Program-made: the position numbers and the translations under genes
Notes under the pieces: model-generated
What the model was told of the DNA's origin: nothing
What the model saw: only the letters and a program-made list of their open reading frames with translations
The model's database searches: none
Assembly: GCA_051362555.1 (NCBI GenBank)
Contig: CM120646.1
Location: 22,134,001-22,198,000 of the forward strand
Source: Lingula anatina
Lineage: Eukaryota > Animalia > Brachiopoda
Reading direction: 5' to 3'
DNA: 64,000 nucleotides
Shown here: positions 1 through 64,000 of the stretch, piece by piece
How the letters are laid out: each line of letters starts with the position of its first letter
How positions within the stretch are numbered: the stretch's first letter is position 1

Positions 1-54
1 ATAGAGGAAATGGGGCTGTCTTAGAATCTACCAATACCACCATGCAGGTGGCAT
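1..54 (+). CDS. 3' end of a C2-type Ig exon (cassette 0 of the V+C2 array), truncated by the window edge
   Basis: Encodes ...[17 protein letters not shown] then T|gttagt donor; identical to the end of exon 1455-1775. Confidence 0.85.
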
Positions 55-791
55 GTTAGTATGCTTCTACATATTTAGTGCACACAATTGAATGATGTAG
101 GTCCTACATATGTTTCAGCTTATTTAATTTAAAAAATGTTCCATGGTTTTCTGCTGTCGTAAGTCTTGATTAGGTATATTTGACCAACGCTGTAGTTTCA
201 ACGTACTTTCTGTATAGAATTGAATGCACTTAATGCTTCTCTTTATTTGTTAACTGATAAAATGAAGTTTTGCCTTAAGCACAATATTCGAATTAATAAC
301 AATAGCATAAAAAATGACAACCAGTGAAAATGTGAATGGACATTGATGACACACACGCCTACCTCTTCTCAACATTTATTGGGTTTTCCCTGCATACGTC
401 TGATGATCCAAAAATTCCAAGATATTGAGTGTACTGATATTGTCAGACCAAGATATATTGTTATTTTCAGGATGTCAGGAGGCATTTAGGATTCCACAAT
501 TTTCTTGACCTTATTTATTTAAAATATACTCAAACACATGTATGTAAGGCATGTAAACATTTTTGGCAAATGCTTACAAGTTTAGGTAATTGCAATATTA
601 TGTAGTTTTACATGTATTTTTCCCGTTTGATCATTACAGAATAGAATCTGTAGAAAATGACAATGATGGGAACGATTTAGCAAAATGAGGTTTAATCTCA
701 TAATAAACATATTCCATATCTACCATAGGCATACATATCGATGTCTTTGTTTGAAAAGAAAGACTGTTAACGTTTCTGTCGCTTTTTCCAG

Positions 792-1115
792 ACACCACCT
801 CTGCCATTCCAGTCATTGGTTATGAAGGAGAGGTTATTGAAATGCAGTGCCAATCTGATTCATCAGGAACAATAACCAGTATACAGTGGTACCTGACGGA
901 TCCTGATCCTGACAAGAGAGTAGCCTATTGGACAGGATCAGGTCAGCCTACGTATATTGGACCACTGACCAATGGACGAGCAACTGTGGCGACACCTTCA
1001 GGAAACCTGACAATACATAGTCTGATGGCATCTGATGCTGGAGGATATGAATGTAGAGTGTATGATGAGAGCTATTTCCAAATACTTGTAGTGGAGTACA
1101 TTTTGACAGTATTTG
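792..1115 (+). CDS. V-set Ig exon, cassette 1
   Basis: tttttccag acceptor, G|gtgagt donor, phase 1-1, 324 bp open; C..IQWY..GNLTI..DAGGYEC V-set pattern. Confidence 0.9.
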
Positions 1116-1454
1116 GTGAGTAAATTTGATTATAATGCATGATATTATAAAACATAATACAGTTTCCATTATTATTCATATTAAATCTACCACATGCAAT
1201 TTTGTATACTTGCTGTTTTTTTTCCAGAATGCACCACTGCACCTCCCCCACACACCATTGCATTTAATTTTAAAATATATTTACAAAAGATTGGTGCCAA
1301 TTTGGTGGCCTTTTCATGGCTTCCTTTTTGTTATTACCACAAAGGAATGCAGGTCATTTGCAAAGTCTAAACAATGGTGTTACAGATAATCGTGATATGT
1401 ACATTATTCAAGCTGGGCCAATACCATGAAGAGAAATTCATTTTTTTCTTCCAG

Positions 1455-60405: not shown

Positions 60406-61336
60406 TTTACCTATGATAACCACAGGGTACCTGTGAAACGGAGATCTACAGACATATTTACGGAATGATCGCTCACATAACAGAATAGTTTAATTTTACA
60501 TGGCAAAGGTATGTCTTTGACATCATATGTGAAAGTATGTACTTAGACATGCATGTCTTAATCTTTGAGACAAGCATACATGTATGAATACACTAAACTT
60601 CTTTTGTTAATATATTATTTTCTAAGATTCAGTATTGTTGGTCATTTACTACAGTAAATTATGCGAAATAAGACATCAGTGACCCGCAGACATAAATAAA
60701 AAAAATGTTTGAATATTCCAAATAAATGAAAACGCACACTACAGTGCATAGACTTGACGCACGCTTATTCGAAGACAATATCTTCAGATTCCCAAAAGAT
60801 ATCTAGGCCTATCCAGACACGGCACGGAAGGACCCAAAATACACCGTAGGTCGGATCACGTTACCGGTTTCCAAGGTGTGTATCAGTACGTGCTTCGAAG
60901 TAGCAAAGGCGGCATCCCCGTATCACGTTAACATATTGCGTACCAAGCAAGAGGGTGACGCGACAAGACGTGCAAGATTTCAGATTTCGACCAAGGACTG
61001 GTTTGAAAGCCACCAGTATAAGAGAAAGTCACAAGTACTAAGGGTTTGATTTTTAGAACTATTCTAAATATTTAAAATTTTCTTTTCATTAAACTGTTCA
61101 GCGCCACTGGTTGTAAATTATAAAGCGTAAATACCCCACAAAAAACTAAAATGTTAGTAGTTCGCATTTGGGAAACACGTCAACTACTACACATGTTGTC
61201 TAATACTACATTTTTTCATACAAGGGCCGTTATCCAATCCGCTGGATGTCTCCAGAAGCTCTGTATGATAACATGCATTCCACACAGTGTGATGTCTGGG
61301 TGTATGGTGTACTGATGAGGGCGATTTTCACATTCG
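60406..61336 (+). pseudogene. Decayed tyrosine kinase exons homologous to the gene A kinase
   Basis: ~60406-60508 PMITTGYL*NGDLQTYLRNDRS (cf. [22 protein letters not shown]); ~60962-61033 [33 protein letters not shown]; 61225-61336 [37 protein letters not shown]. Confidence 0.85.
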
Positions 61337-62955
61337 GTAGAGTATTTATGTTTTTCATGCCGATATATAAATATCATTCTCGTACATTGCTATTATTTGA
61401 AGTTTTAACAGAATATTACTGTGCTTGGGGAGATCATGCTTCTGTGGGCACGCTTGTCGTATAGTTTGCAGCAATATTGCAACAAACTTTTCATTTTGCT
61501 GAGGGACATCACTTTGAGGGGCATTCTCAGGTCAATCCCTTGGGGCCAATGGTGAGAAGAAGCATACATCCATTCTCCAAGCAGTCGAAAAAGGGATTGG
61601 TCCAAAGAGTTTGAATAATGAAATTCGGCTTATAAAATGCATAATGCAGAAGGATAGAGTTATTATAAGACAAATGATTCGAAATAATAATTGCATATTA
61701 ATGAAACATTACCAAAAAAGATAAAGTCAATGAATGGACGAGGAATTTGGGGAATTGCTCCTAGACTCTACCCTCTGATAAATATCTTTCAAGTTAACCA
61801 CATGACGCAGTAAGAAGTGCAATGTTTGGTTTCATATAAAATTATTTTCAAATGACTTTGATAAACATCACGGGAAACGCATCTGGGGTGCTCATACTTA
61901 TATGTACCGGTATGTCACCATACAACCACTTGCATATATATTGGATGCTAAAAAAGAGGAAAAATGTTTAAATCAGCTTCCAATTCACAATCCTCTGCCT
62001 TACTTTGTGTGGAATAAGTGAATGTGTTGACCTAAGCTCTATTTTTATACCGATGCATACGACTGTACTATTTGTCACTGAGGTCAGGTCAAGCAACGCG
62101 ACAACAGCCAGGATGAGGAAGTAGGTGACAGCAAGGGATTTTTAAATTACAAGTAGTTTCATGAAAGGAGTACGTCTATATATATGTGATATAACGAGAA
62201 TATCATCTTCAAGTATTGTTCTCGATGAATAATCGACCGGCCTAAGTAGTAGAATTCATGCCTAACTTTTCGTTATTTGTGTCTTGTTTTCAACAGGTAA
62301 GGCTTACATTACGTTCAGTTCGTTCATAAAATACGACATGAATATGGAAGCACATTGTACGTATGCATATTTTGATATTAACATAAGCTTTTGTTTGTAA
62401 ATGCATGTATCCGTAATTACCACCATTTTCACTAGTTTAATTTAGCATTTGGTGGGATATTTGATTAAGACTTAGTAATACATTTGTACAGGGGGTGACA
62501 TTCTCTATAACTGTTGTAACCTTTGTATCAGGCGTGTTTATTCCGATCGTGGGCTTCTTTCTTACGTATACCCCTAAGTCAAGTTGATAAAATTTTGTGG
62601 TTTTGCCAATGGACGGTGATTCTTTTACTGTGTACTTAAATGCTGCCTTAAACATGTAACGCCCTGTGCATCTATTGTAGTTGTCATCAAAGTGCAGATA
62701 AGAAAATTGAAAATGTAATTGGGAAAGTTTATAACGGTCATAACAGTCAGATGGAATAATGGAGAGGTGCATACGTTCTGAAAAATATTTAAGTTGATTA
62801 GATTCATCAACACAGCAGAGATCACGATTAGAAGGAACCTTGCTAACAGGTGCGTGTACTCCTAAGTGAAATTATTATTAATTTTGATAATGACGAATAT
62901 TGTTCGAACATTGGATTGTACACTATAATATATTTTCTTCTTTATTTAGAATGAG

Positions 62956-64000
62956 ATGGCGAAGATCTACAAATATATTGTAGAGAAACTGGGGTTTTTA
63001 TGGATATTTAACATTGCTAGCGTAACAGGTAAAAATAAAGAAAATGTAAAATTGTTTCTAAAAATGTTACTCACCTGTGAGAATGCATGTATTTCATCTG
63101 AGAGCAATCAAAACTAACATTTCATTAACGTTTTTCCTTTCAAATGATAATTATAATATACTGATATGTGCATCAGCAAAAAGACATTGCAATTAAATGG
63201 CGTTTGGTATAGTAGACCTAATAATTCAATTTGTAGATATGTTGTAATTCATTACACGAATAAAAAATATTTTTAGTATAAACTCAGACAAAGTATTAGA
63301 GGAGGAAGCGCTCATTTTGTTTATTTCACATTTTTCATTGTGTATTGTGGTACAGACAATCATTAGATCGATGATGCTATACTGGTAAAGTCGCTCCCCT
63401 TGCTTTCAATTAACAAATACATGTGTACAGATTGTAAAAGCTAAAAACACGTTTTGCTACACTGGATTAGACGAAACAGGAATAGTCCTGTGTCCGTAGT
63501 ATAAGTTTAAGGGAGAAGAAACGTCTGAATGTCTTCGGATACAGATGACTGGTTATAAGCAGTACAACTTTTATCTTAATGTATTGACACGTGTATGTAA
63601 GGCAAAACTCCCTGGGGAAAATAAATCGTCCTATGTTTTCGTACCTAGAATAAATTTATTAATTCAATAGTAAATACGTGTACCCTGTATTATAACCGTA
63701 TTCTTTTCCAGCTTCCTTGCCTAGTTGTGATGACGCCATTAGTGTTACTCTACCTTCGTCTTACTCTGTACGCACGGGACAGAGTGTCACACTGCAGTGT
63801 ACATTTACTCCTCATGCAGCCCAGTACCAAGTGAAGTGGTCGTGGAATTCAGAGGAGTATGAACTAGTTGTAGGCAACTTAACTGGTTCACCTGCAGTAC
63901 GCCCCAATGGTGTTCTACAGCCAGCGTGGAATGGAAGGTTGTCATTCCAGTCTCCAGCCTCACTTGTTATCAGTGGTGTCACTACAGCAGATACTGGGAC
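62956..64000 (+). CDS. Gene D (5' part): IgSF receptor paralog of gene C, leader exon plus V-set exon, truncated by the window edge
   Basis: Leader 62956-63028 MAKIYKYIVEKLGFLWIFNIASVT (73 nt, same length as in C); V exon from 63712 SLPSCDDAISVTLPSSYSVRTGQSVTLQCTFTPHAAQYQVKWSWNSEEYELVVGNLTGSPAVRPNGVLQPAWNGRLSFQSPASLVISGVTTADTG. Confidence 0.88.

Follow-up and report, generated by a model that had tools for sequence, protein, structure and literature searches.

The 64-kb window analysed here, a stretch of DNA from the brachiopod Lingula anatina, contains a tandem cluster of receptor genes with immunoglobulin (Ig) and fibronectin type III (FN3) domains, in which ectodomain modules have been exchanged between a receptor tyrosine kinase (RTK, gene A) and kinase-less members (genes B and C). 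The anatomy of the cluster and the exchange of modules, as read from gene models and sequence comparisons, are solid; with respect to function, service as a diversifying non-self recognition system, proposed by analogy with receptor families of other animals, appears the most likely, with a probability of roughly 0.55. Exon models for A to D were assembled manually, with splice sites and the translation of all six frames as guides, and Pfam searches with 28 exon or domain queries confirmed V-set, C2-set, I-set and fn3 domains for most exons, two of the 28 (A's C2 and A's second FN3) being without match. The features of the cluster are as follows.

1..3500, + strand: tandem V-C2 array, 5' portion of a duplicated gene A (open frames, GT-AG sites, identity to A); its units, on the same strand, are a C2 end at 1-56, a V at 792-1115 with a C2 at 1455-1775, and a V at 2510-2833 with a C2 at 3180-3500
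17386..34684, + strand: gene A, RTK (24 exons, one stop; Pfam)
43626..49882, + strand: gene B, kinase-less (gene model; B-type transcripts seen as RNA reads, some of them spliced; the relative P0048, introduced below, ends in the corresponding exon)
52622..58801, + strand: gene C, kinase-less, 817 aa (gene model; tail motif scan)
60410..61339, + strand: remnants of kinase exons behind C: K2, a fragment of K3, and K4 (tblastn)
62956..64000, + strand: gene D, running past the end of the window, with leader and C-type V present (gene model; V 70% identical to C's V)

A, B and C lie on the same strand, are bounded by GT-AG sites with their frames open, and follow a common plan of leader, V, further Ig domains, two FN3, a transmembrane (TM) segment, a phase 1-0 micro-exon and an exon carrying a pair of tyrosines. 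The product of A is intact, with 1776 aa, 11 Ig, two FN3 and a kinase of FGFR/RET type, the order being leader, V, C2, three X-Y repeats, I1-I3, two FN3, TM, micro-exon (a prediction), the YENP-x8-YAGL exon and the kinase. B begins with a predicted leader (43626-43671) and a V from 44143, and continues with an A-type C2, X, I1, I2, two FN3, TM, micro-exon and the YDVP-x9-YTDL exon to a stop at 49882; C has leader, V, an I-type Ig, X, I1, I2, two FN3, TM, micro-exon and an SVYDVL-x9-YTDL exon with its stop. Both are intact, have five Ig and two FN3, and terminate within the tyrosine-pair exon, which is the positional match of A's juxtamembrane exon. An earlier note on this DNA had described at least four genes alike exon for exon; the likeness holds for A, B and C, but D shows only leader and V inside the window, leaving three genes to compare, and A has 11 Ig against five. 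Its description of A as running on into a kinase (seven exons), with B and C ending in the tyrosine-pair exon, is borne out. Since every ectodomain exon in the gene models is phase 1-1, these exons are exchangeable.

That exchange has taken place can be seen from the disagreement between exons of the same gene. The C2 of B is 73% identical to A's C2 and 21% to C's second Ig, and from I1 onward B has 29-38% identity to A. Between B and C the stalk (X to FN3) is 87-91% identical in protein, with a synonymous divergence (dS) of 0.12-0.25, the TM and tail 53-65%, the second Ig 21% and the V 28%; the V domains of A and B are 29% identical and those of C and D 70%, and over stalk and tail B and C have 16-38% identity to A. 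In a tree of 39 Ig modules, B's C2 groups with A's C2 (99/91), B's X with C's X (97/97) and B's I1 and I2 also with C, while B's V, a long branch, is placed less firmly (92/80) among the A-type V domains. On these sequence comparisons B combines a C-type body with an A-type C2 and a weakly A-type V; further swaps are seen in three reference proteins. The proposal in the earlier note that the RTK and the non-catalytic receptors exchange ectodomain modules is thus upheld by the incongruent per-exon identities and the module tree.

The reference proteins come from searches with the X, FN3 and V modules, which found at least three L. anatina relatives in RefSeq, a lower bound for the family. The X search gave nine matches, the Lingula RTK P0001 (81%) and eight frog nephrins (29-35%); the FN3 search added the kinase-less P0048, the sole useful one among the 150 matches listed, the rest being mostly multi-FN3 proteins; and the V search added P0165. 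Their automatic names, 'TYRO3' (P0001, XP_013387863), 'roundabout 1-like' (P0048, XP_013392681) and 'pregnancy-specific glycoprotein 8' (P0165), derive from three unrelated vertebrate families, and they lie on three contigs and have other module combinations than the window genes. Identity between A and P0001 is 87% over X3-I3, 49% from FN3 to the juxtamembrane region and 71% in the kinase. P0048 has an unrelated Ig upstream, is C-like at 6/10 discriminating sites in I1 and 7/9 in the first FN3, B-like at 27/34 in TM and tail, and ends in the tyrosine-pair exon like B. P0165 has a C/D-type V (69% identical to C's) followed by a domain like C's second Ig, repeated five times in tandem (84-89%). 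Symmetric phase-1 Ig exons have been duplicated in tandem and moved between genes, so placing related heads on different bodies. One-to-one orthology with nephrin or Side, which would have told against the earlier note's reading, was not found in the X-, FN3- and V-module searches, a blank that is weak evidence; the nephrin likeness amounts to 29-35% in one module, and where nephrin and Sidestep have an Ig array with one FN3 and no kinase, the window family has two FN3, a kinase member and multiple copies. A 3-kb CpG-rich insert lies in A's I3-FN3 intron (26350-29300), and identity to P0001 falls from ~89% to 61% exactly there; it is possibly an exchange breakpoint.

Behind C, in gene order, on C's strand and 1.6-2.5 kb past its stop, are remnants of the kinase exons K2, K3 and K4 (tblastn E 5e-7, 1e-4 and 4e-17), which the earlier note did not mention; the K4 remnant has 83% nt identity to A's K4, and that of K2 has an in-frame stop. 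No convincing kinase remnant was found in the window behind B or upstream of A. The ordered remnants behind C make it likely that the kinase-less members derive from RTKs by truncation, a derivation that is well supported for C itself. An RTK would have gained a stop after its juxtamembrane tyrosine-pair exon, and the kinase exons would then have decayed to leave a kinase-less member. The ratio of non-synonymous to synonymous substitution (dN/dS) in the stalks of B and C, 0.22-0.54, indicates that the two genes are constrained, not dead.

Gene A has a TM segment and the intact catalytic motifs of a receptor tyrosine kinase (G-loop, catalytic Lys, HRDLAARN and DFG), although its activation loop (K3, 33212-33331) is one residue shorter than that of P0001 and has a Cys replacing P0001's Tyr. 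In the PDB the best matches of the P0001 kinase are FGFR and RET chains, save one EGFR-labelled top match, so that the name 'TYRO3' is uninformative. The TAM RTKs (TYRO3, AXL and MER) have two Ig and two FN3 and a KWIAIES kinase motif; TAM identity for A and P0001 was rejected, A having 11 Ig and RWMSPEA at the position in question, and the PDB matches being mostly FGFR and RET. Degenerate tandem copies of A's K5 (34064-34229) and of the start of B's first FN3 (47378-47420) adjoin the original exons, signs of local exon duplication.

The tail motif of the family is YxxP-x8/9-YxxL, in the forms YENP-x8-YAGL (A), YEKP-x9-YTVL (P0001), YDVP-x9-YTDL (B), YEVP-x9-YTDL (P0048) and YDVL-x9-YTDL (C); YxxP is preferred by Crk/Nck-type SH2 domains. 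The earlier note had assigned immunoreceptor tyrosine-based activation or inhibition motifs (ITAM, ITIM) to the tails of the kinase-less genes. When the five tails were scanned with the consensus given in the Hydractinia Alr paper (10.1101/2022.03.04.482883), an ITIM-conforming site was present in C (inside its ITAM), in A and in P0001, whereas B and P0048 had neither motif; of the kinase-less window genes, C fits the assignment and B does not.

Variation in the V heads is concentrated in regions assigned from canonical Ig motifs, used because AlphaFold, given a three-row alignment of C's V, reached a predicted local distance difference test (pLDDT) score of only 48.5. In the three C/D-type V domains 4/33 columns are invariant in the BC and C-C'' regions, which also change in length, against 49/66 elsewhere (framework). 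The earlier note had called the V domains loop-variable, duplicated and swapped; the loop variability holds for C/D-type V domains, V-C2 units are duplicated (three upstream copies), and modules are swapped. Less general is its statement that V is the most divergent part: C and P0165 conform (V 69%, next domain 84-89%), but between B and C the second Ig, at 21%, lies below V at 28%. The B and C stalks, called nearly identical there, are similar, but at 87-91% and dS 0.12-0.25 not nearly identical. No dN/dS significantly above 1 was found in the V or array comparisons. The C-type V (53282-53659) has two extra Cys residues, at the N-terminus and in the FG loop, which are kept in P0165; they possibly form a second disulfide pinning the loop like complementarity-determining region 3.

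The upstream array comprises three V-C2 copies, the first of them incomplete at the window edge, with 83-92% aa identity to A's V and C2. The intron at 8470-9245 downstream of it is colinear with A's C2-X1 intron (18992-19861), breaking off ~55 bp before the X1 acceptor, so that the array is best regarded as the 5' part of a truncated A duplicate. The option that it is a mere part of A, with insertions in the last spacer, is disfavoured by this colinearity, which points to a separate truncated duplicate. The array could be dead, could encode a secreted product (there is a stop two codons past a donor), or could be spliced into A. The first two units differ by 1.1-1.5% in intron and at 0/54 compared exon bases; between units 1 and 2 the difference is 3.4-3.8%, and between either of them and A it is 5-11%. 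Between the two complete units there are 21 replacement and 2 silent changes (p=0.054), an excess equally strong in C2 and in V, and positive selection was dropped as unproven. Within the intron of the truncated duplicate lies what is probably a non-autonomous DNA transposon, a 3.65-kb insertion (3680-7332) that is flanked by TTAA and bears terminal inverted repeats.

Reads from three RNA runs (three studies) and one DNA run were aligned to gene B only, and most of those aligned fall in the high-copy repeat of one intron. Outside the repeat, RNA depth is restricted to exon bins (up to ~25 per bin), with intron-only bins at about zero; spliced joints are represented by nine reads for C2-X (run X17), which carry an A-type C2 end, and three for FN3-FN3 (run X14). 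Two of the three RNA runs contribute reads to the V and tail exons specific to B, and in the two stranded-looking RNA runs the orientation fits sense transcription. The exon-confined reads and spliced joints bear out the expression of B that the earlier note's reading presupposed, for B-type transcripts rather than for the window allele, given the divergence of the reads from the window. A ~385-bp repeat of very high copy number with TTAA at both ends (48052-48436) occupies B's FN3-FN3 intron; C's matching intron is without it, and it is abundant in poly(A) RNA.

Ten runs hold part of 44100-54000, two of which share 0.67-0.75 of sampled words with the window, possibly being its source, while the other eight share 0.06-0.10, which would equal 7-9% divergence, given full coverage; with no control locus, locus-specific polymorphism is indistinguishable here from population or species divergence. 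Contigs from X3, one of these runs, differ from the window in a patchy manner, at 82/~743 letters across V, 70/810 across TM, 20/458 and 1/289, and among the 40 of 824 differences listed B's stop shifts by one codon at most. They number from two (TM, tail) to nine (X) per exon, which suggests more family members than the window shows.

The vertebrate paired receptors (SIRP, CD300, NITR) are clustered V-Ig receptors with alternative tyrosine tails, kinases not being known from those families. The window family is like them in its clustering and alternative tyrosine tails, but has no charged TM and no V domain common to B and C. The paired-receptor character put forward in the earlier note is accordingly retained as regards clustered paralogues and a B/C stalk at 87-91%, but not as regards the V domains (28% between B and C); the tails, with one ITAM in three genes, and the TM segments, none of them charged, agree with it only in part. 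SAML, one of the Geodia receptors, reportedly has an ITIM, which was not found in the available part of the Geodia paper. According to that part, the Geodia cydonium RTK and SAML/SAMS have in common an ectodomain of V-like and constant Ig domains, the RTK Ig domains are polymorphic and a self/non-self role is proposed (PMC11926128). The likeness to the window family thus lies in an RTK and non-kinase membrane receptors with a shared Ig ectodomain; by contrast, Geodia has two Ig, FN3 is not described, and cluster, exon shuffling and kinase remnants do not appear in the available text (PMC11926128). The Hydractinia Alr genes, in the accessible portion of their description, are clustered single-pass receptors at 41 loci with V/I-set Ig and FN3-like domains, exon shuffling, a most divergent domain 1 and ITAM/ITIM tails, allorecognition being shown genetically (10.1101/2022.03.04.482883). 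V/I-set Ig, FN3-like domain, TM, tyrosine tail and exon shuffling are all found in the window family, whereas the accessible Alr text has no kinase-bearing member (10.1101/2022.03.04.482883). The module searches gave no Alr-named match that would indicate homology beyond the fold; in the Atlas search with P0048, which listed ten similar Ig clusters, 'Allorecognition 2' stood in the eighth row.

In Biomphalaria, as far as the accessible text goes, PTC1/GRC, PTC2 and LG5R/SudRes1 are clusters of polymorphic single-pass receptors, phosphatase-tailed and plain, with haplotype presence/absence variation and a link to parasite resistance (PMC13712769). These too are lophotrochozoan clusters of related receptors with and without a catalytic tail, but their ectodomains are EGF/Tie2-like, lectin, FN3 or Ig-like, not V-set heads, and their enzyme is a phosphatase (PMC13712769, in part). 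A review, in its available part, describes an ITAM-bearing Ig receptor of an oyster (PMC11999971), and extracellular domain shuffling is general in RTKs (PMC8662651, likewise in part). The window family works like Alr or the Geodia RTK/SAM receptors, but belongs to neither, nor to the classical paired receptors. Precedents are known, on the partial texts cited, for an RTK with kinase-less Ig receptors (Geodia) and for shuffled ITAM/ITIM clusters (Hydractinia Alr), so that the earlier note's view that no described family combines these traits needs qualification in the light of these and of Biomphalaria. No description of such a family in Lingula or brachiopods was found in the literature, where coverage of subscription journals was thin and the survey of immune genes in Lingula by Gerdol et al. 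(2018) may mention these genes.

Several points weigh against a non-self recognition role, the argument for which is one of analogy throughout. The ITAM consensus fits only C among the five tails, and no charged TM residue is present in A, B or C. Ig loops are generally more variable than frameworks, and in the loops of C and D the proportion of non-synonymous differences (pN 0.40) is below that of synonymous ones (pS 0.56); the 21:2 excess in the array is not significant and stands near the flanking intron divergence of 1.1-3.8%. B-type expression is low, with zero RNA reads in B's TM bin, and the reads are several per cent off the window sequence, possibly coming from paralogues outside it. 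The 7-9% divergence could be population- or species-wide, and the remnant behind C could be part of a separate dead gene. It is unlikely, if conceivable, that the family is instead a developmental or neural adhesion code, nephrin/Sidestep/Dscam-like, labelling cell types in one animal, with YxxP coupling to Nck/Crk and actin and not to immune signalling. The X module's next-best matches are nephrins (29-35%), the P0048 look-alikes in the Atlas are NCAM, fasciclin-2 and nephrin clusters, and the shared first tail motif is YxxP, not YxxL; such molecules are, however, usually conserved across taxa, whereas the module searches found close relatives in Lingula only, and the reference proteins combine their domains differently from the window genes.

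A second alternative, in which an expanded RTK subfamily turns over by near-neutral birth and death within repeat-rich DNA and B and C are truncated by-products serving at most as decoys or dominant-negative modulators of the kinases, is likewise judged improbable. B and C are far from A (16-38%) yet have open frames, are under purifying selection and keep both tail tyrosines, P0048 retains a B-type tail, and the V domains of B and C, being unlike A's, would make poor decoys for A's ligand; such a history would nonetheless fit the truncated A duplicate, the decayed kinase exons, the several transposon insertions, the want of significant dN/dS above 1, the low expression and A's lack of an activation-loop tyrosine. 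That the array is an assembly artefact of uncollapsed haplotypes is highly improbable: the closeness of its first two units (1.1-1.5% in intron, 0/54 exon bases) invites the idea, but the divergence between units 1 and 2 is 3.4-3.8% and that of both from A 5-11%, A's X-Y repeats and P0165 offer further cases of tandem Ig amplification, and A, B, C and the swaps would be unaffected. A more far-reaching proposal, which can be put forward only tentatively, is that of an immune or allorecognition complex midway in the conversion of RTKs to kinase-less ITAM-type immunoreceptors, in which the juxtamembrane docking exon of an RTK (YxxP-x9-YxxL) became a terminal tail, one P-to-L change made an ITAM, and hypervariable V heads are shuffled among bodies with and without a kinase and differ between individuals.

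In a diversifying non-self recognition system, the reading preferred here, the membrane-distal V is predicted to bind ligand via the loops that vary, BC and C-C''. For signalling A would use its own kinase, whereas B and C would depend on phosphorylation in trans, either by an RTK of the family or by a Src-family kinase, before recruiting SH2 proteins, likely Crk/Nck-type adaptors for B's YxxP and Syk/Shark or SHP for C's YxxL pair. The locus offers a testable route from RTKs to non-catalytic tyrosine-motif immunoreceptors, its 64 kb holding an intact kinase, a kinase remnant, a YxxP tail and an ITAM tail, and a candidate recognition complex in Brachiopoda, where the literature searches turned up no other. 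In RefSeq the family goes unrecognised, since its members bear automatic names that have nothing to do with one another.

Rfam gave no matches in the window. Between A and B, and likewise absent from the earlier note, are two tandem EF-hand genes (37650-38310 and 40447-40990, + strand, ~73% nt identity), with one long coding exon apiece; the nearest solved structures for the second are coelenterazine-binding protein, Nereis-type sarcoplasmic calcium-binding protein and obelin (E ~1e-6 to 1e-7). A decayed transposase of Tc1/mariner type (DDE_3 and HTH_Tnp_Tc3_2 in Pfam) lies on the - strand at 14298-15290.

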